A stretch of DNA of 64,000 nt from a virus. Positions 5,132 through 50,213 of this stretch are shown piece by piece. A program made the position numbers and the translations under genes. The stretch lies in IMG/VR virus record IMGVR_UViG_3300021093_000007; one strand, 5' to 3'. Within the stretch, counting starts at the first letter, position 1; each line of letters opens with the position of its first letter. The notes under the pieces were generated by a model, which worked only from the letters and a program-made list of their open reading frames with translations, was not told the DNA's origin and made no database searches.

Positions 5132-7927
5132 ATGGCGACTCCTCAATTATCTCCTGGTGTACTGACTAGAGAGGTTGATTTAACCGTAGGAAGAGCTGAC
5201 AATGTATTAGATAACATTGGAGGTATTGCAGGACCCTTTGAACTTGGTCCAGTAAACGAACCAATTACTGTTTCTACTGAACAGGAACTAATTAGCATTT
5301 TTGGTAAACCCCAAACCGCAGACAACCAATACGAGTATTGGATGAGTGCATCATCATACTTATCGTATGGTGGAGTCCTATCTGTTATTAGAACTGATGG
5401 TGCAAACCTTAAGAATGCTAACTGTGGTGTTGGAACAACTAGCGTAACAAATGTAAAAATTAAAAACTTTGATGACTTCAATGCTAATTATAGCAATACA
5501 GCAGCAAACTTTTATTATGCTGCTAAGAACCCAGGTACATGGGCAAATGGTTTGAAGATTTGCTATATTGACGATCTTGGAGACCAAATTCTTGGTATTG
5601 CAACAACTTCTTTGTCGAGCATTGGTGCTCAAGTTGGATATGCAGTAACTGTAGATGTTAGTGGTCAAGTTATTCCTGGCACAGGAACAACATCAGTCTT
5701 CCAAGGTTATTTAAAGGGAGTTATTACTCAAGCGATTGATTCTCCAGAAACAGGTGTCAGTGCTTTAGTTGTAAAAATCCATTCTAGAGTTTCTACTGGT
5801 GGTACAGAACCAGGTAGACAATATAGAACACATTATACACAAAATAGTTCGTTTGCATCTTTCTTAAAAGATCAAAGAGTTACAATTATTGATCCCAATG
5901 GATTAGTTGTCTCACCAACCGATTCAATTTCTGCAGTCGGAATTACTTCCTCCACCGCAATTAATGGTCAACAAGGACAAGCATATGCTGGAGTTGGTGG
6001 AACAACTGCAGGAACTGGATCTGGAGCAACATTTACTATTACCAGAAATAATACTGATGGTAACGTTCTAACTGCAGCAATTGTAAATGCTGGTTTAGGA
6101 TATACTGTTGGCGACACAGTATCAATTGCTGGAACTGCTGTTGGTGGTTACAATTTATCTCAAGGTGTTATTAACAACATTGGACTTACAACTGCTCCTG
6201 TAGTTGCACCAGCATCTAATGGTGTATATCTTGCTGTTGCTGGAGTAAGCACAGTTGGTTCTGGTGTATCCTTCAATGTTTACAGAAATGCTTCTGGTGG
6301 AATTGGAACTGTTACAATGGTCAATCCTGGATTGGGATATGGATCAAATACAGTGGTTACTATTCCTGGAGCATCAATTGGTGGAGTTACTCCTGGAGAT
6401 AATGCAACATTAACAGTTTCTTCTTTAAGAAATGATAAGGTTATTCTCACAGTAACAAATAGCAATTCAAGAGTTGTTATTGCTGGTGTTGATGATTGGT
6501 ACGATTCTCAAACTTTGGGACTCGATAATTCAACAATTTACTGGAGAACAATTGCACCAAAACCAGGAACATCAAACTATGTTGATGAGCGTGGTGGATA
6601 CAATGATGAATTACATCTTGTTGTAGTTGACGATGATGGAACTTTGACAGGAGTTAAAGGCAACATCCTTGAGAAGCATTTATTCTTATCGAAAGCAAAA
6701 GATACTGTATCGGAAGTTAATTCTCCACAAAAAATGTGGTATAAGAATTATCTTGCAAATTATTCAAACTACATTTATGCTGGTGCAAATCAATCAACAC
6801 AAAATGATTCTACCTGGAATACATTTCCAACAGGTATTAACTTCAACTTAGCAGATTCAGCTACAATTTACAACTTGGCAGATCCAAACACGGTATTTAG
6901 TGTTCCATCACTACCATCTCTTATTTGGGACAGAGATTCAAAAGATGCTTGGTTTTCTTCTATCGGTAGAGTTACTTATGATCTCGGAAATGGCAAAAAT
7001 TATACTACTCAAGGCAATTTAAAATCCACCTTAGGTGATATTATGGAATCTTATGAATTATTCAATAATAAAGAAGAAATTGCGGTAGATTACTTAATGA
7101 TGGGTCCTGGATTAGATTCGCTTAGTGATTCTCAAGCAAAAGCAAATAAACTGATTTCTATCGCAGATGGTAGAAAGGACTGTGTTGCAGTACTGTCTCC
7201 ACATAGAGGATCCGTTGTTGATCTATCAAATCCAATTGTTCAAACTAACAATGTTATTGAATTCTTTGGTCCTCTTCAATCTTCATCATATGCAGTTTTT
7301 GATAGTGGATATAAGTACACCTACGACAGATTCAATAACTTATTCCGTTATATTCCTTGCAACCCAGATGTTGCTGGATTAATGGCAAGAACAAATCTGA
7401 TTGCTTATCCATGGTTCTCACCTGCTGGTCAGCAAAGAGGTGTTTTAAAGAATGCTATTAAACTAGCATTTAATCCAAATAAATCTCAAAGAGATTCTTT
7501 ATATTCTGCAAGAGTTAATTCAATTGTCAATCAAACTGGAGCAGGCGTAATTCTTTTTGGAGATAAGACTGCACTAGCTTATGCATCTGCTTTTGATAGA
7601 ATTAACGTTCGTAGATTATTCTTAACAGTTGAGCAAGCTCTGGAGAGAGCTGCTGAAGCACAACTCTTTGAATTTAACGATCAGATTACAAGATCTAATT
7701 TTGTAAACATTGTTGAACCTTACTTACGTGATATTCAAGCTAAGCGAGGAATTTATGATTATCTTGTAATTTGCGATGAAACCAACAACACTCCAGATAT
7801 TATTGATAATAACGAATTTAGAGCTGATATCTTCCTGAAACCAGCTAAATCTATTAACTATATTACTCTAACATTTGTTGCGACCAGAACTGGAGTCAGT
7901 TTTGAAGAAGTCGCTGGTAGAGTTTGA
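5132..7927 (+). CDS. gp18: tail sheath protein gp18 with inserted duplicated beta domain
   Basis: SPGVLTREVDLT N-terminus, WFSPAG, FDRINVRRLF, KPAKSINYITLTFVA. Confidence 0.97.
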   Translation: MATPQLSPGVLTREVDLTVGRADNVLDNIGGIAGPFELGPVNEPITVSTEQELISIFGKPQTADNQYEYWMSASSYLSYGGVLSVIRTDGANLKNANCGVGTTSVTNVKIKNFDDFNANYSNTAANFYYAAKNPGTWANGLKICYIDDLGDQILGIATTSLSSIGAQVGYAVTVDVSGQVIPGTGTTSVFQGYLKGVITQAIDSPETGVSALVVKIHSRVSTGGTEPGRQYRTHYTQNSSFASFLKDQRVTIIDPNGLVVSPTDSISAVGITSSTAINGQQGQAYAGVGGTTAGTGSGATFTITRNNTDGNVLTAAIVNAGLGYTVGDTVSIAGTAVGGYNLSQGVINNIGLTTAPVVAPASNGVYLAVAGVSTVGSGVSFNVYRNASGGIGTVTMVNPGLGYGSNTVVTIPGASIGGVTPGDNATLTVSSLRNDKVILTVTNSNSRVVIAGVDDWYDSQTLGLDNSTIYWRTIAPKPGTSNYVDERGGYNDELHLVVVDDDGTLTGVKGNILEKHLFLSKAKDTVSEVNSPQKMWYKNYLANYSNYIYAGANQSTQNDSTWNTFPTGINFNLADSATIYNLADPNTVFSVPSLPSLIWDRDSKDAWFSSIGRVTYDLGNGKNYTTQGNLKSTLGDIMESYELFNNKEEIAVDYLMMGPGLDSLSDSQAKANKLISIADGRKDCVAVLSPHRGSVVDLSNPIVQTNNVIEFFGPLQSSSYAVFDSGYKYTYDRFNNLFRYIPCNPDVAGLMARTNLIAYPWFSPAGQQRGVLKNAIKLAFNPNKSQRDSLYSARVNSIVNQTGAGVILFGDKTALAYASAFDRINVRRLFLTVEQALERAAEAQLFEFNDQITRSNFVNIVEPYLRDIQAKRGIYDYLVICDETNNTPDIIDNNEFRADIFLKPAKSINYITLTFVATRTGVSFEEVAGRV

Positions 7928-7965
7928 CCTACTGGATTATTAAATAAAAAGGAGGAACCCTAACA

Positions 7966-8565
7966 ATGGCAAGAGCAATCAGAACTATCACCGACTTCAA
8001 AGCAAAACTTCAAGGCGGTGCAGCAAGACCAAACCTATTTGAGGTCAGTATCCCAAGATTCCCATCTTCTGTAAGTGGTTGGGACGATGAAACTTTTAAT
8101 TTCCTTTGCAAATCCGCTGCTCTTCCAGCATCAAACGTTGCATCAATCGACGTTCCTTTTAGAGGAAGAATTTTAAAAGTCGCTGGAGATCGTACATTTG
8201 ATGTTTGGACAGTCACAGTTATCAATGATGAAGACTTTAAACTAAGAACTTCATTTGAACAGTGGATGAACCAAATTAGTAAATTGAGCAATGCTACTGG
8301 AGCAACCAGTCCAGCATCATATATGGTTGATGCATATGTTCATCAACTAGGTAGAGGACAAACTAGGTTTTCAACTGCCAATACTTCATCAACCACAAAT
8401 ACTCCACTGAGATCATACAGACTTTATGATATATTCCCAACTAATGTATCACAAATTGATCTCTCATATGATACATCAGATACTATTGAGGAATATACTG
8501 TAGACTTCCAAGTTCAGTGGTGGCAAGCTGAGAGTAATGATCAAACTACAACTGCTATTACCTAA
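7966..8565 (+). CDS. gp19: tail tube protein gp19
   Basis: GGAARPNLFEV, VPFRGRILKVAGDRTF, IEEYTVDF; TAAATA 7941-7946 and GGAGG RBS upstream. Confidence 0.96.
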   Translation: MARAIRTITDFKAKLQGGAARPNLFEVSIPRFPSSVSGWDDETFNFLCKSAALPASNVASIDVPFRGRILKVAGDRTFDVWTVTVINDEDFKLRTSFEQWMNQISKLSNATGATSPASYMVDAYVHQLGRGQTRFSTANTSSTTNTPLRSYRLYDIFPTNVSQIDLSYDTSDTIEEYTVDFQVQWWQAESNDQTTTAIT

Positions 8566-8599
8566 TAAATAGTATAACAGTTTAAATTACTTACATATA

Positions 8600-10246
8600 A
8601 TGGCAAAATTGTTTGGATTCTCTATTGAGGATAGTAATAAAAAACCATCAGGATTGGTCTCCCCCGTTCCTCAGAATAATGAGGACGGGGCCGACTATTA
8701 TCTTACTAGTGGATTTTTTGGTTCTTATGTAGATATTGAAGGTGTTTATCGAAGTGAATTTGATTTAATCAAACGTTATAGAGAAATGGCACTTCATCCT
8801 GAAGTGGATGGTGCAATTGAAGATATTGTCAATGAAGCGATTGTTAGTGATACTAACGATAGTCCAGTTCAAATTGACCTTGATAATTTAAATGCCAGTG
8901 ACGGACTTAAAAAAAAGGTAAGAGAAGAATTTAAACATATTTTAGAATTAATGGACTTTGATAAAAAGTGCCATGAAATTTATAGGAATTGGTATGTTGA
9001 TGGTAGACTTTATTATCACAAACTTATTGATTTAAAAAATCCTCAAGACGGAATTCAAGAATTAAGATATATTGATGCCTTAAAAATGCGTCATGTTAGA
9101 CAAGCATCTAAAGGCAATAAGAATGATGCAAGACTTGGACCAAATGGAGAAAAGGATCCGATGGATTCTGGATTCCCAGATATCCAAGAATATTTTATTT
9201 ACAATGCGTCAGCAAATCAGATAGGAACAATCAATAATAGTTCAAATCAAGTTAATCAGGGAACTAAGTTTTCAAAAGATTCTATTACTTATTGCACATC
9301 TGGATTAGTTGACAGAAATAAAAATCTAACTCTTTCATATCTTCATAAAGCAATTAAATCTCTCAATCAACTCCGTATGATTGAGGATTCTCTTGTTATC
9401 TATCGTTTATCAAGAGCACCAGAGAGAAGAATTTTTTATATCGACGTAGGTAATCTCCCCAAAATTAAAGCGGAACAATATCTCCGTGATGTTATGATGC
9501 GTTATCGTAATAAACTAGTGTATGATGCTAATACTGGTGAAATTCGTGACGATAAAAAATATATGAGTATGCTTGAAGATTTTTGGTTGCCAAGAAGAGA
9601 AGGTGGTAGAGGAACTGAAATCTCCACTCTTCCTGGAGGTCAAAATTTAGGGGAGCTATCTGATATTAAATACTTCCAAGAAAAATTATATCGTTCTTTA
9701 AATGTCCCATCTTCTAGAATTGGTGGTCAGGAAGGATTTAATCTTGGAAGATCTTCAGAAATTTTAAGAGACGAACTTAAATTTACTAAATTTGTTGGTA
9801 GATTAAGAAAGCGTTTTTCCAACATGTTTAATGACATGTTAAGAACTCAACTTCTTCTTAAAAATATTATTACTCCAGAAGATTGGGAGTTGATGGAAGA
9901 GCATATTCAATATGACTTCTTATATGACAATCATTTTGCAGAATTAAAAGATGCGGAATTAATGACAGAAAGACTGAATATTGCAGCAACTGCAGAACCA
10001 TATATTGGTAAATATTACTCACAAGATTATGTAAGACGTAAGATTCTTCGTCAAACTGATGAAGAAATTATTGAACAAGATAAACTTATTAAGAAAGAAA
10101 TTGCTGCTGGAATCATTCCAGATCCAAACGCACCTATTGATCCAGCAACTGGTCAACCACTCGCAGCAGATCAAAATCTTGGGGCACCAATTAACGAACC
10201 AAACTTGGATAGTCAAAGTAAAACTGTAGAACCGCCACAAATTTAA
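8600..10246 (+). CDS. gp20: portal protein gp20
   Basis: YRLSRAPERRIFYIDVGNLPK, EDFWLPRREGGRGTEISTLPGG; TAAATA 8566-8571 upstream. Confidence 0.98.
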   Translation: MAKLFGFSIEDSNKKPSGLVSPVPQNNEDGADYYLTSGFFGSYVDIEGVYRSEFDLIKRYREMALHPEVDGAIEDIVNEAIVSDTNDSPVQIDLDNLNASDGLKKKVREEFKHILELMDFDKKCHEIYRNWYVDGRLYYHKLIDLKNPQDGIQELRYIDALKMRHVRQASKGNKNDARLGPNGEKDPMDSGFPDIQEYFIYNASANQIGTINNSSNQVNQGTKFSKDSITYCTSGLVDRNKNLTLSYLHKAIKSLNQLRMIEDSLVIYRLSRAPERRIFYIDVGNLPKIKAEQYLRDVMMRYRNKLVYDANTGEIRDDKKYMSMLEDFWLPRREGGRGTEISTLPGGQNLGELSDIKYFQEKLYRSLNVPSSRIGGQEGFNLGRSSEILRDELKFTKFVGRLRKRFSNMFNDMLRTQLLLKNIITPEDWELMEEHIQYDFLYDNHFAELKDAELMTERLNIAATAEPYIGKYYSQDYVRRKILRQTDEEIIEQDKLIKKEIAAGIIPDPNAPIDPATGQPLAADQNLGAPINEPNLDSQSKTVEPPQI

Positions 10247-10248
10247 TT

Positions 10249-10911
10249 ATGAATCGTTATCATAGATTTTTGAATATTGGAGATTACATTCCTAATATTG
10301 ATACTTCAAAGTATCAAACTGAGGGTATGAGATGGCCAGAATTCCATAAGCAACTTCAATTTAAAGACCTAGGTAATGATAAAATTTTACCTTGGTTAAA
10401 TAGTTTAGGATTCACATCTCATTGGATAGAATTTTTCTATACCCCACCACACGATGATGGTGTTATACATTCCGATAACGTATATTATGCTGATTGGGCA
10501 AAGTTGATATTCCAATTTGGTGCTAAAGGAAGCACTATGAGATGGTGGACATCTGACATGGTTTTGAGAGTAAGCACTAGTGCGGAACAAGTTTGCTCAA
10601 CAGTTATTCCAGAACGTAGTCAATATACTGTTGGAGATAGAACTAATGATCATTATCATGGTCAAGTTTTAGTTAGTAGAGAAGAATACTGCAAAAAAGA
10701 ATATGAAGTTGAGATAGGGTCTTGCGGATTAATTAATGTTGGACCTTTACATAGTTCTTATAATCCAACAGATGATAAAAGATTTACGGTGACTATTGCT
10801 CTAATTGATAAGAATAAAGATTACGAGCATCGTATTTTATGGGATGAGGCAGTAGAGGCATTTAAACCCTACATAGTTGATTCTTCAATAGACCTTTGCG
10901 CCGTAAAATAA
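10249..10911 (+). CDS. hypothetical protein, cupin/2OG-Fe(II)-like
   Basis: IHSD ... PLHS ... KRFTVTI resembles the HxD...H...R pattern of a double-stranded beta-helix. Confidence 0.5.
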   Translation: MNRYHRFLNIGDYIPNIDTSKYQTEGMRWPEFHKQLQFKDLGNDKILPWLNSLGFTSHWIEFFYTPPHDDGVIHSDNVYYADWAKLIFQFGAKGSTMRWWTSDMVLRVSTSAEQVCSTVIPERSQYTVGDRTNDHYHGQVLVSREEYCKKEYEVEIGSCGLINVGPLHSSYNPTDDKRFTVTIALIDKNKDYEHRILWDEAVEAFKPYIVDSSIDLCAVK

Positions 10912-12634
10912 ACACGGTATGAGGATCGTTTTTATCGAAGGATTTAAATTCAGTATCTACTTTGTATGTCGCGTTTTCACATGTTAGATAAAATGGATAT
11001 TCAGTTTTTTCATCAAAGATAAATGCACGTTGTAAAGATATAATATCTGTTGTGATTGAGTTTAATGTTTGTGTTGCCTTTTCTACAAGTTTAAAAATTT
11101 GGTCCTTATTGGTAAACATAAAGGCAAAACTTCCAGCATGTAGAGTATGCCCATGCTTGCCTTTATTTAATATTTTTCCAGTTTTCATGTAATGATTTAC
11201 TGCAGATTCAATTTCCCTATAGTGCTCCCCTATTACACCAGAATCTGATTTTATGAATTCAAATAAAGTATCATAAAATTGACGATAAGATATATTTAAA
11301 CTTTCATAATAATGTTTAGCAACTATTTGTGTATATCCAGCAATATGGAATTGAACAATTAACCACCCATACATATACGCTTGAATTAATTCATCATTTG
11401 ACATTGTATTAGTTTCCGAGATTAACTCGATAGTTTCTGTAACACCATCATAATCTCGATCATTTCCGAAAGATACATAATCTTCCGCTTTGATTGTTTT
11501 TATCCCATATACTTCTCTTGAGGTTGCACTGTTTAATTCAGTATCTCCAAACATTTGACAGAACCAGACATCAATTGATTCATGCTGACCACACTCAAGA
11601 ATTTTAGAAAATCCTTCCTTCCAAGTATCTAAAGTTTCTTCAGGCAATCCAAGAATCAATTCAGTATAAGTTTTTACCCCATACTCTTTACTTTTATCAA
11701 TTTGTTCAGATATTTTATTAATACTCATATTCTTTCTTTTAATCGCTTTAAGTGTTGGTTCATTCATAGTCTGCACACTTAAAGTTACACCTCTACTAAT
11801 ATCTCCAAGTATTTTTGCAATTTCAAAAATTACTTCAGTAGAGTTTTTAGAATATTGGATGTTTATTGCTTCAAGGTTACCCTCATCTGCTGCTTCTCTG
11901 AATATCTTTGCAATTTCCAAGTCGCGTTCTTTAAACATACCAAAGTTTGCATCAGCATTAAAAATAAATCCAACATTATTCTTTCTAGCCCAATCAATAT
12001 CATCTCTAACTCGTTGAATATCAAAGTGTCTAACTTTTGTATATGTTAATCCACCCCAGTCACAATAAGTGCATCTATGAGGACAACCTCTATTAGTTTC
12101 CATAGTCATTGCCCATAAAACACCTGGATTATCTTCAATAATTCTATCAAATACTCCAATCTGATAAGGACTTGGAAAATTTAAATCTTCAATTCTTTTT
12201 TTTGCATAGATTCTATCAATTGTTTCGCTGTTGTTTACTTTCCTTAAAAAATCTAAAAATGCTTCCTCACCCTCAGATACAATAATACAGTCGATAAAAT
12301 CATAATCATTTAATCTATGAGTTGCTTGAGGACCACCAAATTCAATAATACAATTTGGATATTTTTCTTTGATTAGTTTTGCTACATGTAAGTTATATTG
12401 TTCATTCCAAACATAACAACTAAATGCACAAATTGCAGGATTATCTAACCTATCAATTAAATCTTCTGGGTCTTCTCTTCGGAATATAAGATCTTTTAAT
12501 TCATAGGAATCTTGTATATCTTTAAATTGAGAACAATATGCCCACAAACATCCTACGCTATAAGGTAACCAATAAGTATCTTCTTTTCTAATCTCAACCG
12601 CATATTGTGGTTGAAACATATAAAGGTTTTTCAT
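10862..12634 (-). CDS. B12-binding radical SAM protein (paralog 2)
   Basis: N-terminal cobalamin-binding-type domain (FSCYVWN...GGPQ...EGEE), ETNRGCPHRCTYCDWG CxxxCxxC, DANFG, ELILGLPEET. Confidence 0.9.
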   Translation of the reverse strand: MKNLYMFQPQYAVEIRKEDTYWLPYSVGCLWAYCSQFKDIQDSYELKDLIFRREDPEDLIDRLDNPAICAFSCYVWNEQYNLHVAKLIKEKYPNCIIEFGGPQATHRLNDYDFIDCIIVSEGEEAFLDFLRKVNNSETIDRIYAKKRIEDLNFPSPYQIGVFDRIIEDNPGVLWAMTMETNRGCPHRCTYCDWGGLTYTKVRHFDIQRVRDDIDWARKNNVGFIFNADANFGMFKERDLEIAKIFREAADEGNLEAINIQYSKNSTEVIFEIAKILGDISRGVTLSVQTMNEPTLKAIKRKNMSINKISEQIDKSKEYGVKTYTELILGLPEETLDTWKEGFSKILECGQHESIDVWFCQMFGDTELNSATSREVYGIKTIKAEDYVSFGNDRDYDGVTETIELISETNTMSNDELIQAYMYGWLIVQFHIAGYTQIVAKHYYESLNISYRQFYDTLFEFIKSDSGVIGEHYREIESAVNHYMKTGKILNKGKHGHTLHAGSFAFMFTNKDQIFKLVEKATQTLNSITTDIISLQRAFIFDEKTEYPFYLTCENATYKVDTEFKSFDKNDPHTVFILRRKGLLKNQLCRV

Positions 12635-14436
12635 AATTTTACCATTGTATTTTTTGTAAGATATTTTCTTTTAATTACAAATAAATCATATCTTTCATCT
12701 TCTGTTCTTTCATTCTCTATAGAATATTGAGTATCTTTTTTCTCCCAAGTATCTAAATCAAAAGGTAATACCTCTACATGAGGATAATTTATGTTTGGAT
12801 CATACACAAATTTTCTTTGGATGTCAAAAATACTTTTTTCTATATCAAAAGTGTTACGTGCAAAATCTTCAATAAAGTCTAATATTTTATCTTTATTTTC
12901 AAATCTTGATAAAGTATCATTTGGCATACCAACACCCAGTCCATGTCCACTTGAATGATTAGAAGGGACTTTTCCAGTATCAAAATATTCAGTTATTGCT
13001 TTTAAGTATTCTCTAAATTCAGTTCCCAAAAATCCAGAGTCATTCATTGTATATTCATATAAAGATTCATAAAATTTTCTATAACTTACTCCCAATACAT
13101 ATCGACAATACTTAGATAAAATTTGTGTATATCCAACATAATGAAATTTAATTGTTATCCAAGAAAACATATGGGCATCAAAAAAGTCTTGTTTAGACAT
13201 CGTATCAGTCTCACAAATTAATTCAATGTATTCTTTTGTATTATCAAATTCATCATTACAGAACGATATGTAATCTTCTGCTTTAACAGTTTTTATACCA
13301 TAAGTCTTTCTACTAAATTCACTACCTAACTCAGCATTTTCAAATACTTGACAGAACCAAGAGTCTACAGAAAAATGTTGTCCGTTTTCCATTAATAAAT
13401 CAATTCCATCTTTCCAAGAATCCACTGTTTCTTCGGGCATTCCTAAAATTAAATCCGTATATAATTTTACATTATGTTTTTTTGCCAATTCAACATGTCC
13501 AGCAATATCTTTTACGTGAAGATTCTTTCTTTTGATCGCTTTAAGTGTTGGCATATTCATACTTTGAACACTTAAAGTGACACCTCTTCTAGAATATTCT
13601 CCCATAATCTTTGCAATTTCAAATGAGGCTTCATTTGAATTTTTTGAGTATTGTAAATCTATATTATCTAACATTAAACTATTTTCTGCTGCTTTACGTA
13701 GCATCTTTGCAATTTCAATATCACGTTCTTTAAATATTCCAAAATTTGCATCCGCACATAAAACATAAGCAACTTTATGTGTTCTTATCCATTCAATATC
13801 TTCAGCAATTCTTTCCAATTCAAATTTATTAATTTTACTCATAGTTGTACCACCCCAGTCACAAAAAGTACATCTATGTGGACAACCCCTGTTGGTTTCT
13901 AAAATTGCTGCCCAAATAACATCTGGATTTTTTTTAGATAACCAATCAAAAACTCCAGATTGGTAAGGACTTTTAAAATCTAAAGAATCTATTCTTTTTC
14001 TTTCATGGACTTTGTTGATTGAATTACCAGTATTAATGCTTCTCAATAATTCTAAAAATGCTTCTTCACCTTCACCAAGGATAACACAATCAATGAATGG
14101 ATTTTTTTCCATCATTTTTGTAGTTACTTGAGGACCACCAAATTCAATAATGCAGTTTGGGTATTTTTCTTTTATCAATTTAGCTAAGTATAAATTATAC
14201 TGCTCATTCCATAGATAACAACTAAATGCACAAATTGTAGGATTATCTATTTTTTCTAGTAACTGTTCTGGATTTTCTCTTCTAAAAATAATATCTTTTA
14301 ATTCAAATGATTCTTCTATATCTTTAAACTGTTTACAATAACTCCATAAACAAGAAACACTATAAGGCATCCAATAATTTTTAGTGTCCCTTACATTAAC
14401 GCTATATTGTGGTTGAATGAAGTATATATTTTTCAT
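12631..14436 (-). CDS. B12-binding radical SAM protein (paralog 1)
   Basis: Same architecture; ETNRGCPHRCTFCDWG; 4-bp overlap with its neighbour. Confidence 0.9.
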   Translation of the reverse strand: MKNIYFIQPQYSVNVRDTKNYWMPYSVSCLWSYCKQFKDIEESFELKDIIFRRENPEQLLEKIDNPTICAFSCYLWNEQYNLYLAKLIKEKYPNCIIEFGGPQVTTKMMEKNPFIDCVILGEGEEAFLELLRSINTGNSINKVHERKRIDSLDFKSPYQSGVFDWLSKKNPDVIWAAILETNRGCPHRCTFCDWGGTTMSKINKFELERIAEDIEWIRTHKVAYVLCADANFGIFKERDIEIAKMLRKAAENSLMLDNIDLQYSKNSNEASFEIAKIMGEYSRRGVTLSVQSMNMPTLKAIKRKNLHVKDIAGHVELAKKHNVKLYTDLILGMPEETVDSWKDGIDLLMENGQHFSVDSWFCQVFENAELGSEFSRKTYGIKTVKAEDYISFCNDEFDNTKEYIELICETDTMSKQDFFDAHMFSWITIKFHYVGYTQILSKYCRYVLGVSYRKFYESLYEYTMNDSGFLGTEFREYLKAITEYFDTGKVPSNHSSGHGLGVGMPNDTLSRFENKDKILDFIEDFARNTFDIEKSIFDIQRKFVYDPNINYPHVEVLPFDLDTWEKKDTQYSIENERTEDERYDLFVIKRKYLTKNTMVKL

Positions 14437-15341
14437 AACGTAGATATAAATTTATTATGTTGTTCAATTCCTCTTTTATAAAAATATTTATCGTCCCATC
14501 GTTTAATATCTCGTTCCATTAGATTATCATTTAATTTTCCAAAATTAAAAAAATCATTCAAGCTAAAATTATCTTTATCGTTTTCCCACCATTCTTTATA
14601 TGCTTCATAGCAACAAATAAAAGATTTCATTGGATACCATTCTGTAATGTGAGTTGAACCTTTGAAAAAAGGATTACACGGAATCAATGGTATTGTATAA
14701 GTATTCCCAGTTTGACATAAAAAATAATCTGGAGTTCCTGCAAGATCATTAAAAAAATAACCATCACCTATTCCAGATTCTCTATTAATATAAATTGAGT
14801 TTGCCACAACTCCAGTAAATTTATATTTACCATCAACATAAAAAAGTTCTAAAAGTTTTTCAACATGAGTTCTTTTTAATAATACTGGACCAAGAGAATA
14901 ATTACTCTGAACTGGATGTAAATAAAATCTAACTATGTCTGGACATTCATGCCCCAATTGTATAGCATCCCAATCATAAGGAAGATATGTTAGTAAATTG
15001 TCCCAAGTAAAGTGCCAGTAATCGATAAAACTTAAATCATAATCATCTTCCATTACTATGACATAAGGTTCATTTGTTTCAAAATACCAATTTTTTAAAG
15101 TATCAATTAAAAAATAATTATACGCCAAACATCTTTTAGATGCTAATTCAGAGTGAACATTTAATATTTTTTCCTCTAAGTTCTTTGGAAATCCAAATGG
15201 CATCAAAATTTTTGTAAAGGTGATTCCATAAAACTTAAATTGATTTTCCATGTATTTTTGTCTTTTTACTTCATTTTCCAAAGTAAAATAAAATACATGA
15301 GGAAAGTTTTTTAATTTATCACATCCCATAATCAAATACAT
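14433..15341 (-). CDS. glycosyltransferase family 25-like protein
   Basis: VFYFTL...RQKYMENQF, VMEDDYDL, LPYDWDAIQL; same family as the five genes at 46713-51017. Confidence 0.75.
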   Translation of the reverse strand: MYLIMGCDKLKNFPHVFYFTLENEVKRQKYMENQFKFYGITFTKILMPFGFPKNLEEKILNVHSELASKRCLAYNYFLIDTLKNWYFETNEPYVIVMEDDYDLSFIDYWHFTWDNLLTYLPYDWDAIQLGHECPDIVRFYLHPVQSNYSLGPVLLKRTHVEKLLELFYVDGKYKFTGVVANSIYINRESGIGDGYFFNDLAGTPDYFLCQTGNTYTIPLIPCNPFFKGSTHITEWYPMKSFICCYEAYKEWWENDKDNFSLNDFFNFGKLNDNLMERDIKRWDDKYFYKRGIEQHNKFISTL

Positions 15342-15353
15342 TTTACTCGTTCT

Positions 15354-15370
15354 GTATTTATTCTAAATAC
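15354..15370. promoter_or_regulatory. back-to-back divergent late promoters (GTATTTA-TTC-TAAATAC)
   Basis: TATTTA 15355-15360 (TAAATA on minus strand, upstream of the GT/radical SAM operon) and TAAATA 15364-15369 on plus strand; perfect 7-bp inverted repeat. Confidence 0.7.
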
Positions 15371-15393
15371 TAGAGTAATTCATGAGAATAACA

Positions 15394-15552
15394 ATGGAAG
15401 AACTTCTAGATATGATTGTTGGTGATGAAGCACCATCTGCAATCTCTGATAAGATTAAAGACTTACTGTATACTCGCTCAGCTGAAAAAATTGAAGTGTT
15501 GAGACCTTCAGTATCAAATTCAATGTTTAATGCTGCTACAGATGCAGAATAA
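15394..15552 (+). CDS. small conserved head-module hypothetical protein (52 aa, not in ORF track)
   Basis: MEELLDMIVGDEAPSAISDKIKDLLYTRSAEKIEVLRPSVSNSMF...; resembles the small gene that usually follows gp20 in cyanomyoviruses. Confidence 0.75.
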   Translation: MEELLDMIVGDEAPSAISDKIKDLLYTRSAEKIEVLRPSVSNSMFNAATDAE

Positions 15553-15592
15553 TAAAGAACAATAAATAACTAAATAAAAAGTTTCTTTATTA

Positions 15593-15859
15593 ATGATGAT
15601 TACTAAAATTGTATCTACACAACAAGATACTGCAATTACTGCTGGAACAGCATCAAGTATTAGTGATGCCACAGCTGTTCGTTTGTATAACAATACTGTA
15701 GGAGTAGTCACTGTAGGAGTAAGTTCTGCAGTTGGTGCTGCATCTACTAGTTATTTTGCAATGCCTGCAGGGTCTGTTGAATTTTTGGCAAAACTTCCAA
15801 CTGATGTTATTTGGTCATCATCAGCAATTAGAGCAAACAAAGTAGCATTCACAAACTAA
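15593..15859 (+). CDS. small conserved hypothetical protein upstream of gp21
   Basis: 88 aa, ATAVRLYN...VEFLAK...KVAFTN; tandem TAAATA motifs upstream. Confidence 0.75.
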   Translation: MMITKIVSTQQDTAITAGTASSISDATAVRLYNNTVGVVTVGVSSAVGAASTSYFAMPAGSVEFLAKLPTDVIWSSSAIRANKVAFTN

Positions 15860-15860
15860 A

Positions 15861-16514
15861 ATGAAACTCATCAGAGAAGAGATCGAAAAGGTTGAAGTTA
15901 TCACCGAGAGCATTGGTGGTAAAAAGCAAATGTATATCCAAGGAGTCTTTCTCCAAAGTGAGATGGTTAATCGCAATGGTAGAATGTATCCATTCTCCAT
16001 TATGGAAAGAGAAGTAAAAAGATATACAAATGATTATGTAAAAAAAGGTAGAGCATTAGGTGAACTCGGACACCCTGATGGTCCCACTGTAAATCTCGAC
16101 AGAGTATCCCATAAAATTACTGAACTAAAGCAAGACGGTAATAACTTCGTAGGTAAAGCACAAATTCTGCATACTCCAATGGGTAAAATTGCAGAAGCAC
16201 TTCTTAAAGATGGAGTAACTCTCGGCGTTTCTTCTCGTGGTATTGGATCATTAAGAGAAAATATCAAAGGTGGTTATAAGGAAGTTGGTGAAGACTTCAT
16301 GCTTGCAACTGCAGCAGATATTGTTGCAGATCCATCAGCACCTGATGCTTTTGTTCAGGGAATTATGGAAGGAAAAGAGTGGGTGTGGGATGGTGGAATT
16401 CTCCGTGAGAAGATTGCAAATCAAACCAGACAAAGAATTGAAGATCTTTCTAGAAGAAGAGAACTAGAAGAGCACAAGTTGAATTTATTTAATGACTTTT
16501 TAAATTCACTTTGA
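15861..16514 (+). CDS. gp21: prohead protease gp21
   Basis: NRNGRMYP, ALGELGHP, LGVSSRGIGSL, DIVADPSAPDAFV. Confidence 0.97.
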   Translation: MKLIREEIEKVEVITESIGGKKQMYIQGVFLQSEMVNRNGRMYPFSIMEREVKRYTNDYVKKGRALGELGHPDGPTVNLDRVSHKITELKQDGNNFVGKAQILHTPMGKIAEALLKDGVTLGVSSRGIGSLRENIKGGYKEVGEDFMLATAADIVADPSAPDAFVQGIMEGKEWVWDGGILREKIANQTRQRIEDLSRRRELEEHKLNLFNDFLNSL

Positions 16515-16588: not shown

Positions 16589-17848
<1,260 letters not shown>

Positions 17849-17897: not shown

Positions 17898-19307
17898 ATG
17901 TTCCAATCCGAGCATCTGCAGGAAAAGTGGGCACCACTTCTCGACTATGATGGTCTTGATCCAATCAAAGATTCACACAGAAGAGCAGTAACCGCTGTCC
18001 TGTTAGAAAACCAAGAAAAATTCCTGAGAGAGCAATCTGCTTTCTCAAACGGAATTCTGATGGAATCACCAACCAATAGCGCAAACGCTGCTGGTGCTTC
18101 AGGTGGATTCTCAGGTTCCGCTGCAGCAGCAGGTCCTGTTGCAGGTTTTGATCCAGTTCTGATCTCACTCATCAGACGTGCAATGCCTAACCTGGTCGCT
18201 TATGACCTCGCAGGTGTTCAACCAATGAGTGGTCCTACTGGACTCATCTTCGCAATGCGTTCACGCTACACCAATCAGAGCGGCACCGAAGCTCTGTTTG
18301 ATGAAGCAGATACCGTATTCTCTGGTCAGAATTCAGGTATCGGTCTTACCGCTGCATCAAACGTTAATGCTGGTATGGGTACTACTACCCAGTATGGCAG
18401 CAACCCAGGTCTCCTGAACCCAGTTGGTACTGGTGCTTCAACTGGTTCTGGTGGTTATAACGTTGGTCAGGGTATGTTTACTGGAGATTCAGAGAATCTC
18501 GGTAACGGTGCTGGCAACCAATTCAACGAGATGGCATTCTCAATCGAGAAGGTTCTTGTTGAAGCCAAGTCAAGAGCACTGAAGGCAGAATACAGCCTTG
18601 AGCTTGCACAAGACCTGAAGGCAATTCACGGTCTGAATGCAGAAGCAGAACTTGCTAACATTCTCTCAACTGAGATCCTCGCTGAAATCAACAGAGAAGT
18701 TATCAGAACCATCTATAAGGTTGCTGAGCAAGGCGCTGCTGCTAACACTGCTACCGCTGGTATCTTCGACCTCGACATCGACTCCAACGGTCGTTGGTCA
18801 GTTGAGAAGTTCAAAGGTCTCCTGTTCCAAATCGAGCGCGACGCTAACGCAATCGCACAAAGAACTCGTAGAGGAAAGGGCAACGTTGTAATGTGTTCCG
18901 CAGACGTTGCTTCTGCACTGAGCATGGCTGGTGTACTTGATTACACTCCTGCTCTGAACGCAAACCTCAACGTTGATGACACTGGCAATACCTTCGCTGG
19001 TGTTCTGCTTGGTAAGTATCGCGTATATATCGATCCTTATTCAGCAAACGTATCTGCTAACCAATACTATGTTGTTGGTTATAAGGGTTCTTCACCTTAT
19101 GACGCAGGTCTGTTCTATTGCCCATATGTTCCTCTCCAAATGGTTCGTGCCGTTGGTGAGAACACCTTCCAGCCTAAGATTGGCTTTAAGACCAGATACG
19201 GTCTTGTTGCTAACCCATTCGCTGAAGGCACCACTCAGGGTCTCGGCAGACTTCAAGTTAACGCAAACCGTTACTACAGAAGAGTTCAAATCAAGAACCT
19301 CATGTGA
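17898..19307 (+). CDS. gp23: major capsid protein gp23
   Basis: FDPVLISLIRRAMPNL, VQPMSGPTGLIFAMR, ELAQDLKAIHGL, FQPKIGFKTRYG. Confidence 0.99.
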   Translation: MFQSEHLQEKWAPLLDYDGLDPIKDSHRRAVTAVLLENQEKFLREQSAFSNGILMESPTNSANAAGASGGFSGSAAAAGPVAGFDPVLISLIRRAMPNLVAYDLAGVQPMSGPTGLIFAMRSRYTNQSGTEALFDEADTVFSGQNSGIGLTAASNVNAGMGTTTQYGSNPGLLNPVGTGASTGSGGYNVGQGMFTGDSENLGNGAGNQFNEMAFSIEKVLVEAKSRALKAEYSLELAQDLKAIHGLNAEAELANILSTEILAEINREVIRTIYKVAEQGAAANTATAGIFDLDIDSNGRWSVEKFKGLLFQIERDANAIAQRTRRGKGNVVMCSADVASALSMAGVLDYTPALNANLNVDDTGNTFAGVLLGKYRVYIDPYSANVSANQYYVVGYKGSSPYDAGLFYCPYVPLQMVRAVGENTFQPKIGFKTRYGLVANPFAEGTTQGLGRLQVNANRYYRRVQIKNLM

Positions 19308-22306: not shown

Positions 22307-22336
22307 TTGATTCTTTTTGTATAGTAGTGTTATAAT
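22307..22336 (+). promoter_or_regulatory. sigma70-type promoter for gp55
   Basis: TTGATT-N18-TATAAT with extended -10 TG. Confidence 0.65.
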
Positions 22337-22361
22337 TTCAACAATTAATACAGTAATTTTT

Positions 22362-22856
22362 ATGGGTATCCAACCAGTGCCTAAAAGAAAGAGATCAATT
22401 CACTACGTTAATAACAAAGAATTTCTTTTAGCTTTGATTGAGTATAGAAGGCAACTTAGTTTGGCTCAAGAACGGGGAGATCCAAGACCACAGATTACAA
22501 ACTATCTGGGCGAATGCTTTTTAAAGATTGCAACACATTTATCATTCAAACCAAATTTTGTCAACTACATTTTTAAAGATGACATGATTTCTGATGGTAT
22601 TGAAAATTGTGTTATGTATATCCATAATTTTGATCCTGAAAAGTCTCAGAATCCATTTGCATATTTTACGCAAATTATACACTACGCCTTTTTACGTAGA
22701 ATTCAAAAAGAGAAAAAGCAGTTAGAAATTAAAAATAAAATTTTAGAAAGAACTGGATTTGATGAGGTTTTCTTTGATGATAACCTGATTGACGGTATGA
22801 ATTATTCTGACTATAATTCTATCAAGGACAACATTCATTCCAAATCTAGGTATTGA
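22362..22856 (+). CDS. gp55: late sigma factor gp55
   Basis: HYVNNKEFL, DDMISDGIENC, NPFAYFTQIIHYAFLRRIQKEKKQ. Confidence 0.97.
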   Translation: MGIQPVPKRKRSIHYVNNKEFLLALIEYRRQLSLAQERGDPRPQITNYLGECFLKIATHLSFKPNFVNYIFKDDMISDGIENCVMYIHNFDPEKSQNPFAYFTQIIHYAFLRRIQKEKKQLEIKNKILERTGFDEVFFDDNLIDGMNYSDYNSIKDNIHSKSRY

Positions 22857-25869: not shown

Positions 25870-26606
25870 AGGTTTTAGTCACTGGACATAGAGGATTTAT
25901 TGGAAGAAATGTATTCGCTGATTGGCAAACCACCCACAATCATTTGGTTGTGGGAATGGATTTTCCGTATGATATTGATAATTTTGTTGGTGATGATTAT
26001 GATTTGATTATTCATTTGGCAGCATTTGCAAATATCAGAGAAAGTCTAGAGAATCCTCAAAAGTTTTATGAGAATAATGTAGTAAAGTCTAAAAAGATAT
26101 TCGACTGGTGTAGAGAGACAAATACTAGACTTTTATATGCTTCCTCTAGTGCTGTAGAGGAAGATTATTGGGAGAATCCTTATGCTATGACAAAGTGGAT
26201 TAATGAACAAATGGCACCACCCAACTCTGTTGGGATGAGATTTACCACTGTTTATGGTCCAGACAGTCGTCCAGATATGATGTATAGGATGCTTGAAGAT
26301 AAAACTGCAACCTACGTAACCAATCATAAAAGAGATTGGATTCATGTTAATGATGTGTGTCGAGCAATTCGTTATCTTGCTAGTAGTGAAATCTGTGGAC
26401 CAGTTCCTGTTGGATCTGGTAAATCTGTCTATGTTAAAGATCTTGCAGAGAAGATGGGGATGGGTCACTTGCCAGTTAAAGAACTGACCCCAGGTGAAAG
26501 ACAAGATAATGTGGCAGATACTATAATCCTAACTAGTATTGGATGGTTCCCAACCATTAACGTTCTGGACACGATCAATGAACACCCCAAATTGGCAACA
26601 TCATAG
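25866..26606 (+). CDS. NAD-dependent epimerase/dehydratase (WcaG-like)
   Basis: VTGHRGFIG, HLAA, YASSS, YAMTK (YxxxK), RFTTVYGP, RDWIHV. Confidence 0.9.
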   Translation: MKVLVTGHRGFIGRNVFADWQTTHNHLVVGMDFPYDIDNFVGDDYDLIIHLAAFANIRESLENPQKFYENNVVKSKKIFDWCRETNTRLLYASSSAVEEDYWENPYAMTKWINEQMAPPNSVGMRFTTVYGPDSRPDMMYRMLEDKTATYVTNHKRDWIHVNDVCRAIRYLASSEICGPVPVGSGKSVYVKDLAEKMGMGHLPVKELTPGERQDNVADTIILTSIGWFPTINVLDTINEHPKLATS

Positions 26607-26751
26607 TAAAAAAGAACAAAAGCGGAAACTTAAACCGCAAGCACTTCGACAAGCAAAGGCACGACTGAGCCACTTCAAAAAGCAGCACATGACCTCCCCC
26701 AAAAAGGGAGGTTCTTCTGTAGTATACGTTCACACGATTCAAATCAAATGA
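26578..26751 (+). CDS. small basic hypothetical protein
   Basis: MNTPNWQHHSKKEQKRKLKPQALRQAKARL, recognisable cyanophage small ORF. Confidence 0.6.
   Translation: MNTPNWQHHSKKEQKRKLKPQALRQAKARLSHFKKQHMTSPKKGGSSVVYVHTIQIK
26667..26725 (+). promoter_or_regulatory. putative early promoter (degenerate palindrome, hairpin, -10 TAGTAT)
   Basis: GAGCCACTTCAAAAAGCAGCAC ~30 nt upstream of TAGTAT; similar element at 29047. Confidence 0.45.
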
Positions 26752-28898
26752 CTGTCCGCCACGAAATCAAGTCTCAACTCGCTAAACTGCTTGCTACCGA
26801 AGACCTTGTGGTTGAGCACAAGAAGGTAGAGACTGCTTGCTTTAATGTCCACACTCGTGTCCTTACTCTTCCTATGTGGGAGAAGGCAAGCAACACTGTG
26901 TACGACCTTCTGGTTGGTCACGAGGTCGGTCACGCTCTCTATACCCCCGATGAGGATTGGTTGAAGGAGCACAAGATTCCCCCGCAGTTTGTGAATGTGG
27001 TGGAAGATGCTCGTATTGAGAAACTGATGAAGCGTCGTTATGCTGGTCTTGCCAAGACCTTCTACAACGGTTATAAGGAACTTGCTGATGATGATTTCTT
27101 CCAACTTAATGACGACAATCTGGAAACCTATAATCTTGCTGACCGCGCAAATCTGTGGTTCAAGATTGGTAACTATGTGGACATTCCTGTTGAGCGTGGC
27201 GAAGAGACTGAAATCATCAACTTGATTGCGGATACCGAGACCTTTGCTGATGTTCTGATTGCAGCAGAAGCACTTTATAAGTATTGCAAGCAAAAGCAGC
27301 AAGAAGAAACCAAGACTCAAATTGACAGTCTTGAATCTCAATCTTCTGGTGCAAGTCAACAACCTGCCTCTGACTTCTCTGATCAGCAGGAAGGTGAGAA
27401 TAATCAAGAACAGCAAGATACTTCTGAATCTCCTGCATCTAGTGAAACTAAGCAAGAGAAGCAACCTAAGAATTCTCCTCAGGGTGGTGAAGAATTTGAA
27501 CCTGAAGTGAAGACGATGGATAATCTTGAGGAAGCTCTTAAGGAACTTGTAGAAAATTCGTCATTTGAAAATATTTACTTGGAACTACCTGAGTTGGATC
27601 TTGACCGAATTATTGTTCCTAATTCTGAGATTCATTCAAAATGTAATGATACTTGGAAAGAATTAATTGAAGATGTTAATCTTCGTGGGAATTCTGTTTT
27701 TGGTGAAGTTGATAAACGATATCAAGAATTTAAAAAGTCTGCTCAAAAAGAAGTTACTTATCTTGTCAAAGAATTTGAATGTCGTAAAGCAGCAGATTCT
27801 TATTCTAGGTCTTCAGTCGCTCGCACTGGTGTTCTAGACTGTTCTAAACTTCATACATATAAGTATAATGAAGATCTTTTTAGAAAAGTAACCACTCTTG
27901 CTGAGGGTAAAAATCATGGATTGGTTTTTATTCTGGATTGGTCTGGTTCAATGTCCGATGTAATGGTAGATACTATTAAGCAGTTGTTTAACTTGATCTG
28001 GTTCTGTAAAAAGGTTGCAATTCCTTTTGAGGTCTATGCGTTCACCACTGATTATCCTTTGGTCAAATATGAACCAGACGGGAAAGCAAATCTTCGTATG
28101 CTATCTTATAAAAAACGTGATGGTCTCATTCAAGTGGGAGAGTGGTTCTCTTTGATGAATATTCTGACTAGTAAAACAAATACGAAGGTTTTGGAAGAAC
28201 AAATGAAAAATATCTTCCGAATTGCACATTGTTTTGACCGTCATTTTTATTGTGGATATAGTATTCCTCCTGGTCTCAGTCTCTCTGGAACCCCATTGAA
28301 TGAATCTTTGATTGCTTTGCATCAGATTCTTCCTAAATTTCAGAAGGAAAATAAACTTCAAAAAGTTCAGTGTGTGGTTCTTACTGATGGGGAGGCTTGT
28401 AATATTGTTTATCATCGTGAAGTAAAGCGTCATTGGGAAGACAACTCGTATTTGGGCACTGCTCATATTGGTCCTAATGCTTATCTGCGAGATCGTAAAA
28501 CAGGTCATACCTATGCTTTTGATGGTAACTATCATATGATTACCGAAGTTCTACTTCAAAATCTTAGAGACAAGTTTTCTAACATTAATTTTATTGGTAT
28601 TCGTATTCTTGAACCGAGGGATGCTGGAAACTTTATCCGTCGTTACTATGGTTGGTATGGTGATGAGTTGGATAAGATGATGAGCGTTTGGAAAAAAGAA
28701 AAAGCATTTACGATCAAGAGATCTGGATATCATTCATATTTTGGTCTCTCTGCTACTGCTCTTGCACAAGGATCTGAATTTTCCATTGAAGGGGATGCAA
28801 CCAAATCTCAAATTAAAAGTGCTTTTGTTAAAAGTCTTAAAACTAAAAAAATGAATAAAAAAATTCTTAATGAGTTCATTGATCTGGTAGCCAAATGA
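26748..28898 (+). CDS. metallopeptidase-like + vWA domain protein (CobT-like partner of CobS)
   Basis: HEVGH (HExxH), NVVEDARIE, acidic linker, LDWSGSM MIDAS, LSGTPL, LTDGE. Confidence 0.88.
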   Translation: MTVRHEIKSQLAKLLATEDLVVEHKKVETACFNVHTRVLTLPMWEKASNTVYDLLVGHEVGHALYTPDEDWLKEHKIPPQFVNVVEDARIEKLMKRRYAGLAKTFYNGYKELADDDFFQLNDDNLETYNLADRANLWFKIGNYVDIPVERGEETEIINLIADTETFADVLIAAEALYKYCKQKQQEETKTQIDSLESQSSGASQQPASDFSDQQEGENNQEQQDTSESPASSETKQEKQPKNSPQGGEEFEPEVKTMDNLEEALKELVENSSFENIYLELPELDLDRIIVPNSEIHSKCNDTWKELIEDVNLRGNSVFGEVDKRYQEFKKSAQKEVTYLVKEFECRKAADSYSRSSVARTGVLDCSKLHTYKYNEDLFRKVTTLAEGKNHGLVFILDWSGSMSDVMVDTIKQLFNLIWFCKKVAIPFEVYAFTTDYPLVKYEPDGKANLRMLSYKKRDGLIQVGEWFSLMNILTSKTNTKVLEEQMKNIFRIAHCFDRHFYCGYSIPPGLSLSGTPLNESLIALHQILPKFQKENKLQKVQCVVLTDGEACNIVYHREVKRHWEDNSYLGTAHIGPNAYLRDRKTGHTYAFDGNYHMITEVLLQNLRDKFSNINFIGIRILEPRDAGNFIRRYYGWYGDELDKMMSVWKKEKAFTIKRSGYHSYFGLSATALAQGSEFSIEGDATKSQIKSAFVKSLKTKKMNKKILNEFIDLVAK

Positions 28899-44870: not shown

Positions 44871-44871
44871 T

Positions 44872-49362: not shown

Positions 49363-49368
49363 CAGAGA

Positions 49369-49374
49369 TAAATA
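49369..49374 (+). promoter_or_regulatory. late promoter core inside the glycosyltransferase cluster
   Basis: GATAAATA in the only sizeable intergenic gap of the cluster (49363-49410). Confidence 0.55.
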
Positions 49375-49410
49375 TTTTTAATAGAATAATGAAGTGTTGT
49401 TCAAATTATT

Positions 49411-50211: not shown

Positions 50212-50213
50212 TT

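Follow-up and report, generated by a model that had tools for sequence, protein, structure and literature searches.

A putative late-expressed cassette of twin cobalamin-type radical SAM genes in the head-gene module of uncultured T4-like cyanophages

Background

Radical S-adenosylmethionine (SAM) methylases that depend on cobalamin occur in antibiotic, lipid, bacteriochlorophyll and methanogen pathways. In this study, a pair of genes for proteins of this kind, rSAM_A and rSAM_B, was analysed in a viral DNA stretch of 64,000 nucleotides (nt), namely IMG/VR record IMGVR_UViG_3300021093_000007 (the whole stretch is hereafter called the window), where the two genes and a glycosyltransferase (GT) gene form a minus-strand cassette between the T4-like head genes gp20 and gp21. 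The nearest described enzymes are TokK and ThnK (PDB 7kdx, 7kdy), which methylate C6 of carbapenems sequentially and resemble the phage proteins in layout, with an N-terminal Rossmann cobalamin domain, a radical SAM core with a CxxxCxxC motif and a C-terminal part. TokK differs in its substrate, a pantetheinylated carbapenam, and in its Streptomyces origin. The phage proteins, some 80 residues shorter and unaligned to TokK at the C-terminal end, form a paralogous pair and are encoded in a phage head module. CysS, the iterative methylase of the cystobactamid alkoxy group, lies in the same sequence neighbourhood but acts on an aryl methoxy group. The C-methylases of sugars and aminoglycosides of the GenK, GenD1 and Fom3 type are not the nearest sequence relatives; they would be functional analogues of the role proposed here, the methylation of an unactivated carbon of a sugar-derived scaffold by enzymes encoded amid genes for sugar aminotransferases and dehydratases.

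Among phages, GT genes of mycobacteriophages have been tied to glycosylation of the phages' own virion proteins (Freeman et al. 2023, PMC10527164, via PMC12801897); these systems belong to actinophages and are not known to include radical SAM or cobalamin enzymes. The glycan island of phage S-SCSM2R (ORF301-310, PMC12801897) resembles the window in its GT25-like paralogues, a DegT/AHBA-synthase-like gene, an amidinotransferase and 2-oxoglutarate (2OG) oxygenases. Its radical SAM protein, however, is of the small SPASM/maturase type and not cobalamin-dependent, and the island occupies a hypervariable region on the main strand, whereas the cassette of the window lies in the head module with its own predicted late promoter. 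Collagen modification (LH3/COLGALT1 and mimivirus R655) is a more distant parallel: these proteins include the best fold matches of the cassette GT, and a 2OG oxygenase-like gene, orf220, is also part of the inserted island, but the likeness is at the level of fold and the window lacks a collagen-like acceptor.

Our analysis covered the gene content, promoter region, distribution and gene neighbourhoods of the cassette. The best reading, to which we give an even chance, is that the gp20-gp21 interval carries a tailoring island whose twin cobalamin-type radical SAM enzymes C-methylate a sugar or glycan late in infection. The features concerned are as follows.

14433-15341, minus strand: GT (GT25-like), 302 amino acids (aa), first gene of the operon
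12631-14436, minus strand: rSAM_A, 601 aa
10862-12634, minus strand: rSAM_B, 590 aa
10249-10911, plus strand: orf220, fourth inserted gene
15362 to 15355, minus strand: predicted late-promoter core AATAAATA for the cassette, predicted transcription start near 15349
15362-15369, plus strand: predicted late-promoter core TCTAAATA serving gp21 and the small prohead-core-like genes; its end lies 12 nt ahead of the start codon at 15382

Gene content and organisation of the cassette

GT, rSAM_A and rSAM_B are coupled by 4-bp ATGA stop/start overlaps and are the sole substantial minus-strand open reading frames (ORFs) in the 64 kb; overlap filtering left one further minus-strand ORF, of 55 aa (26575-26742). 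Together with orf220 they make up a four-gene insertion between gp20 and small prohead-core-like ORFs, and in the cultured relatives S-SCSM1 and S-SRM01 the four genes are absent and the same interval holds small ORFs only. The ratio of nonsynonymous to synonymous substitution rates (dN/dS) against close relatives was 0.05-0.10 for the cassette genes (0.06 for rSAM_B) and 0.03 for gp20 and gp21, and purifying selection of this strength argues that the cassette genes are real and functional. An earlier note on this DNA had described a coupled three-gene minus-strand operon between gp20 and the prohead genes; ORF positions, ATGA overlaps and dN/dS all agree with this description, which had the three minus-strand genes right and missed orf220 as part of the island. 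The GC content is 27-31% in the cassette, 34.5% in the window as a whole and 48% in gp23. At third codon positions the cassette (0.16-0.19) is similar to gp18 and gp20, so that it fits the composition of this phage and is no recent import.

Radical SAM proteins

The two proteins are paralogues with 52% identity, and both match the radical SAM family PF04055 (E = 1.4e-15 for rSAM_A and 2.8e-15 for rSAM_B). The cobalamin-binding-type N-terminal domain and CxxxCxxC motif previously noticed in both were recovered: PF02310 matched rSAM_A at 5.8e-9 (36.3 bits, above the gathering cut-off of 32.1) and rSAM_B at 1.7e-5 (25.1 bits, below that cut-off), the family profile, which contains both proteins, aligned to the cobalamin domain of TokK starting at residue 22, and the cluster cysteines C185, C189 and C192 were invariant in 16 sequences. 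When compared with PDB entries, the profile matched TokK (7kdx) at 1.5e-89 over residues 22-485 and CysS (9n1b) at 2.6e-48; the TokK alignment spans phage residues 22-485 of about 600 and TokK residues 22-507 of 681. The hidden Markov model alignment pairs W76 and W215 of TokK with W76 and W194, which do not vary within the phage family. A Trp beneath the corrin (Trp76 in TokK) and one in the active site (Trp215 in TokK) are common to TokK, ThnK and CysS (bioRxiv 10.1101/2021.07.10.451909, Fig. S1), and other characterised cobalamin radical SAM methylases lack these two residues (bioRxiv 10.1101/2021.07.10.451909). The best NCBIfam match of both proteins was the KedN5 family NF033712 (1e-52 to 1e-54; 1.2e-52 for rSAM_B), with scores of 179.1 and 184.8 bits that lie far below the curated cut-off of 700 and place the proteins outside this family.

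On account of the profile matches and the invariant W76/W194 and cluster cysteines, rSAM_A and rSAM_B are assigned by sequence to the class-B (cobalamin-type) radical SAM enzymes, in the TokK/CysS neighbourhood of sequential sp3-carbon methylases. The class B type proposed at the outset is thereby retained and refined to TokK/CysS-like. Both proteins add to an enzyme group that is already known, in a viral context that is new, and methylation is the chemistry that they would be expected to perform.

Late promoter region

The 40-bp gap between the GT start at 15341 and the ATG at 15382 contains TATTTA-TT-CTAAATA at 15355-15369, a back-to-back pair of cores that occurs once in the window. At least one such match was present in 21 of 100 shuffled windows, so a lone match is not rare, and the argument for a promoter rests on position and on conservation across loci. 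Intergenic DNA makes up 2.8% of the window and holds 7 of the 10 plus-strand CTAAATA sites and 6 of the 15 plus-strand NATAAATA sites; the intergenic plus-strand motifs stand 19-45 nt ahead of the starts of tail-sheath, tail-tube, portal, prohead-core, scaffold and other genes. Three NATAAATA sites are on the minus strand, and the only intergenic one is 21 nt from the GT ATG, measured from the motif start. Intergenic enrichment and spacing ahead of structural genes mark CTAAATA/NATAAATA as the probable late-promoter motif of this phage. About 44 related loci also have the back-to-back pair, once each and at exactly this junction, with a spacer of 0-3 nt and differing flanks, and the minus-strand core reads [AGC]ATAAATA or CTAAATA in nearly all of them.

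The arrangement agrees with T4-type late promoters in having an 8-bp TATAAATA-type core, about 6 nt ahead of the predicted start, and an encoded gp55. T4 late promoters have no -35 element and are active in either polarity, and A at -13, the variant present here, is frequent in T4, with nine natural sites (PMC2988020). A sigma-70 promoter or a terminator serving the cassette was considered and rejected: sigma-70-like sites were at chance level, and positions 10000-16000 held no terminator-like site. The claim of two abutting late cores at the 5' end of the operon was thus upheld, by the uniqueness of the pair, its recurrence across loci and the presence of gp55; the late-promoter wiring of the cassette is plausible and conserved in evolution, and its transcription would be late. 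The same TATTTA...TAAATA pair was also seen between divergent DegT-like and epimerase-like genes at L069:12472-12485 (and in L070); L069 is a 130-kb contig of non-T4 context with a radical SAM gene and a remote orf220 homologue.

Distribution and evolution

At least 533 loci with the radical SAM family were found in IMG/VR and more than 4,000 relatives in a large protein collection, and 50%-identical homologues occur on contigs of 250-307 kb. The 50,697 GenBank phage records held no meaningful homologue of the radical SAM proteins or orf220: tblastn with both radical SAM proteins returned two weak matches only, at 23-27% identity in gut phage contigs, tblastn with orf220 returned none at E <= 1e-5, and megablast of the island returned none. 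Cellular genome contigs searched with two peptide patterns gave no cellular relative, a pattern-limited result that does not prove absence from cells. The literature on cyanophage or phage cobalamin and B12 radical SAM enzymes yielded no account of the cassette, nor of such enzymes in a viral late programme.

Architectures and neighbourhoods were compared in the 79 best of the at least 533 loci. About 45 of the 79 are T4-like, with gp20 78-97% and gp23 89-98% identical to those of the window, and in these the cassette is kept, inverted, between gp20 and gp21. The commonest form is GT-A-B; some loci have the radical SAM pair alone, some a third radical SAM gene upstream and a few a single radical SAM gene. 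In loci L017 and L021 (at about 6600-9000), a third paralogue, 50% identical to rSAM_B, precedes GT and makes a four-gene cassette. Several cassettes lack GT but are otherwise identical, which makes the radical SAM pair the conserved core and GT an accessory, variable member.

The 4-bp overlap at the junction between the radical SAM genes was present in 23 of 24 distinct cases. In the tree, the gp20-proximal B copies form one tight clade, and the promoter-proximal A copies split deeply into several clades whose arrangement is at odds with that of B; rSAM_B is 63-93% identical across T4-like loci. rSAM_B is therefore the vertically inherited copy and rSAM_A the exchanged one. Locus L033 illustrates this, with nucleotide identity to the window of 85-91% in the flanks, 88% in the promoter block and 50-75% in rSAM_A and GT, and protein identity of 96% for gp20, 98% for gp23, 56% for A and 52% for GT. 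Locus L008 keeps the window-type A allele (85%) with a different GT (58%). These comparisons show allele replacement of rSAM_A and GT in a hypervariable slot beside a conserved partner, which is the pattern expected of a product under diversifying selection.

The cassette-bearing clade consists of phages of cyanobacteria, since a complete 246.5-kb genome with terminal repeats, a cassette-bearing relative, encodes psbA and psbD; the oxygenic host assumed in the earlier note is thereby backed. That note had also singled out an oxygen-sensitive B12 step in such a host. The step remains of interest, but it is no paradox, as a cyanobacterial B12-type radical SAM protein, slr0320, is represented in NCBIfam.

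Sugar gene context

A single TokK-like radical SAM gene stands among co-directional sugar genes in 23 distinct viral loci of non-T4 type; its neighbours include a nucleoside diphosphate (NDP)-sugar 4,6-dehydratase/epimerase, a DegT-like aminotransferase, a GT1-like gene and further radical SAM genes. These neighbourhoods in unrelated viruses are the main reason for favouring a sugar over a peptide or DNA as the substrate. Two window genes are probable pathway partners.

44851-45405, plus strand: w44851, 184 aa, possible oxygenase-like protein
46060-46716, plus strand: w46060, DegT/DnrJ-type aminotransferase-like protein (PF01041, 1.5e-14)

A w44851 homologue is within four genes of the TokK-like radical SAM gene in 16 of the 23 loci, and a w46060 homologue in 13. 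w44851 itself matched no family; it is encoded in both longer cassette-bearing genomes, its single match in GenBank phages is weak (28%, to a '2OG-Fe(II) oxygenase' of S-SCSM2R), and 19% of its sister cluster carry Asp_Arg_Hydrox. Both genes belong to a glycan island at 44.8-53 kb, which also contains a sulfotransferase-like gene, five GT paralogues, a StrB1-like amidinotransferase-like gene at 51020 and a UDP-glucose dehydrogenase gene. An epimerase/dehydratase gene of the window lies apart, at 25866. The start of the island has no late motif and is contiguous with replication genes; a late-type motif, GATAAATA at 49367-49374, stands 44 nt ahead of the ORF at 49411 and splits the island into this first part and a second one with a late-like promoter of its own. 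Sugar-precursor synthesis may thus precede a late tailoring step.

Two further neighbourhoods are recorded. At L057:10811-19602, on an 85.7-kb contig of a probable jumbo phage (CheckV 25% complete), the seven ORFs that come after a TokK-like radical SAM gene include five with radical SAM matches, some of them weak; among these five are two of SPASM type and a second one of B12 type. The cluster is unusually dense in radical SAM genes. At L065:12009-13878, as in some other non-T4 loci, GTP cyclohydrolase I and phosphoribosyltransferase genes lie downstream of the radical SAM/sugar block.

Glycosyltransferase and orf220

The cassette GT matched phrog_2835 'glucosyltransferase' at 3.8e-28 and no Pfam family at E <= 0.01, PF01755 included; homologues at 24-39% identity do carry PF01755, so its relation to GT25 is remote. 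Its AlphaFold2 model (predicted local distance difference test, pLDDT, 89.6) gave as best Foldseek matches COLGALT1 (9evj, 8zgc), mimivirus R655 (9crz) and a beta-1,4-galactosyltransferase (8xlz) at E values of 1e-7 to 1e-6, with template modelling (TM) scores of 0.41-0.45 (0.42-0.45 for COLGALT1) and 13-16% identity. An acidic, DxD-type motif, E98-D99-D100, is invariant in the homologues. From the model, the protein is probably a GT-A fold glycosyltransferase that is remotely GT25-like; the original label GT25 holds as remote homology and fold and fails as a PF01755 profile match. The window encodes six PHROG 2835 paralogues: a tandem run of five, which belongs to the glycan island (46713-51017), and the cassette GT, whose best match in a cultured phage (35%) is in the S-SCSM2R glycan island, beside a radical SAM gene. 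The proposed glycan link as a whole gains from the carbohydrate context in unrelated viruses, but its tie to this particular GT is loose, as the gene is missing from several cassettes.

orf220 matched neither Pfam nor PHROG. Its AlphaFold2 model (pLDDT 82) had top structural matches that were all 2OG oxygenases, at VIA Z 8-10 against many of them: 10.0 for 7v4m, 9.9 for proline 3-hydroxylase (1e5r), and also PHD2, FIH and NO66. In 17 homologues there is no variation at H74-x-D76 and H168, the candidate HxD...H iron triad, or at R178, the candidate basic residue for 2OG, and the modelled protein is a probable Fe(II)/2OG oxygenase of double-stranded beta-helix fold. Kinship with w44851 or with an Asp/Asn-hydroxylase-like ORF at 55668 was tried and rejected, as hhalign was not significant and aligned only a short H...R[FY]T motif.

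The orf220 start lies 3 nt past gp20, so the two genes are probably co-transcribed. The 3' ends of orf220 and rSAM_B overlap convergently by 50 bp (10862-10911), and the two C-termini are therefore encoded on opposite strands of shared DNA; this overlap is conserved, with a length of 50 bp at 16 distinct related junctions and of 35 bp at three. The leftward cassette transcript must meet the gp20-orf220 transcript here, with collision or pairing of late transcripts. In loci without orf220, rSAM_B abuts gp20 or overlaps it by 0-29 bp.

Discussion

Late C-methylation of a sugar or glycan by the radical SAM pair would proceed as follows. gp55-directed RNA polymerase would start late at the two abutting cores and read leftward through GT, rSAM_A and rSAM_B on one translationally coupled message and rightward through the prohead genes, and orf220 would be read with gp20 from the opposite side, the transcripts converging with the 50-bp overlap. 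The radical SAM pair would be C-methyltransferases of the TokK/ThnK/CysS type, with C185/C189/C192 carrying a [4Fe-4S] cluster and W76 lying below a corrinoid bound base-off, and would transfer methyl groups to an unactivated sp3 carbon, possibly repeatedly. The substrate would most likely be a nucleotide-sugar or glycan made by the phage sugar genes at 44.8-53 kb, and the role of the GT25-like enzyme would be to transfer this sugar or to extend it. A fixed step may fall to the conserved B copy, and the exchanged A copy and GT may supply strain-specific variation. The product would decorate a late-made component, the virion being favoured from position and late timing.

Decoration of the virion fits the late timing, the position in the head module, the protein-galactosyltransferase-like fold of GT and the adjacent oxygenase-like gene. 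Several points weigh against the proposal. The sugar substrate is deduced solely from neighbourhoods in other viruses, and in this lineage about 30 kb separates the cassette from the sugar genes. Characterised TokK-group enzymes use carbapenam and an aryl methoxy group and no sugars, and the final 110 or so residues of the phage proteins are unaligned to TokK. The absence of GT from several cassettes makes the radical SAM pair independent of this GT. Position and timing alone tie the product to the virion, and the window encodes no collagen-like or other obvious acceptor protein; a collagen-like acceptor was sought and rejected, with G-X-Y runs in no window ORF.

A fuller cascade, in which orf220 hydroxylates, GT glycosylates and the twin radical SAM enzymes C-alkylate a virion surface component with host pseudocobalamin, the exchangeable rSAM_A/GT alleles making 'serotypes' of virion glycans, is in our view unlikely in full. 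If true, it would be the first cobalamin-dependent radical chemistry in the building of a virus particle.

The module might instead remodel the host envelope (lipopolysaccharide (LPS), O-antigen or another surface glycan), for example to keep progeny from adsorbing to debris and to cells already infected, or as a means of excluding other phages. According to the PF01755 description, GT25 is a classical LPS family, glycan islands of cyanomyoviruses have been interpreted as host-surface modifiers (PMC12801897), and the swapping of GT and rSAM_A alleles would suit any surface glycan under diversifying selection. Late timing and placement in the head module are, however, unusual for takeover or exclusion functions, and Pfam and PHROG revealed no membrane, flippase or export gene in the cassette, which leaves this account rather unlikely. 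Less probable still is direct methylation of a virion or prohead protein by the radical SAM pair, in the manner of PoyC, Mmp10 or QCMT, with orf220 hydroxylating the same target. The cassette does stand beside prohead-core, protease, scaffold and capsid genes and shares their late promoter region, orf220 resembles PHD2, FIH, NO66 and proline 3-hydroxylase, and class B radical SAM enzymes include peptide and protein C-methylases; but the nearest relatives, TokK, CysS and the KedN5 family, use small molecules, unrelated viruses place the radical SAM gene among nucleotide-sugar genes and not among structural or precursor-peptide genes, and the cassette has no precursor-like small ORF.

Equally doubtful is a diffusible aminoglycoside-like molecule, made by these genes with the amidinotransferase/aminotransferase/GT island and directed at competitors or host translation. 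Such a product would draw on the StrB1-like amidinotransferase-like, DegT-like, UDP-glucose dehydrogenase and sulfotransferase-like genes of the island; the S-SCSM2R authors labelled related genes 'antibiotic synthesis genes' (PMC12801897), and GenK and GenD1 are cobalamin radical SAM C-methylases of aminoglycoside pathways (listed in bioRxiv 10.1101/2021.07.10.451909). Six GT paralogues, on the other hand, suggest that an oligosaccharide is built on an acceptor, genes for export or self-resistance were not recognised, and a late promoter leaves little time for a secreted product. That the cassette is passive cargo, with the palindrome serving the prohead genes only and its minus-strand half a by-product of symmetry, we regard as very unlikely: the frequency of single matches in shuffled windows would allow it, but the minus-strand core is kept in nearly all of the 44 or so loci despite the varying 0-3 nt spacer and flanks, its distance to the first cassette ATG is in keeping with that of other late genes, and the cassette genes are under strong purifying selection. 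Hypermodification of phage DNA by base glycosylation and alkylation, as a defence against restriction, would find some encouragement in the PHROG name 'glucosyltransferase', the arms-race-like allele turnover and the GTP cyclohydrolase I gene near a few non-T4 loci. It is the most improbable of these explanations, as DNA-modifying enzymes work during replication and not from late promoters, the GT fold is that of protein and LPS galactosyltransferases and not of the T4 alpha- and beta-glucosyltransferases, and the cassette has no linked gene for a hydroxymethylase or transglycosylase.

An uncultured cyanophage clade keeps two B12 radical SAM genes under purifying selection inside its head-gene module, and the swaps of A/GT alleles in near-identical backbones suggest that the product is selected in phage-host or phage-environment interactions. 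If a sugar is methylated and placed on the virion or cell surface, this would be a new kind of phage glycan chemistry. It would also tie phage fitness to the scarce marine pool of B12 and pseudo-B12, and the loci would offer enzymology a naturally diversified set of TokK-like C-alkylating enzymes.

Other features of the window

The window is from a T4-like cyanomyovirus, and its structural genes have about 71-75% nucleotide identity to those of the Synechococcus phages S-SCSM1, S-SRM01 and S-SM2. The genes used as landmarks, together with a cobalamin-related gene, are as follows.

8600-10246: portal gp20 (PF07230, 9e-193)
15861-16514: prohead protease (gp21)
16589-17848: scaffold
17898-19307: major capsid protein (gp23)
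22317-22856: gp55 late sigma factor (phrog_234, 5.5e-66)
29137-30270: cobS (phrog_249, 6.5e-139)

cobS is frequent among cyanomyoviruses (PMC9301287), and a functional tie between it and the B12-dependent enzymes of the cassette is possible but speculative. Its neighbour encodes a 716-aa 'peptidase' (26748-28898) with a weak CobT-like match, and cobS was found in both related cassette-bearing genomes too.

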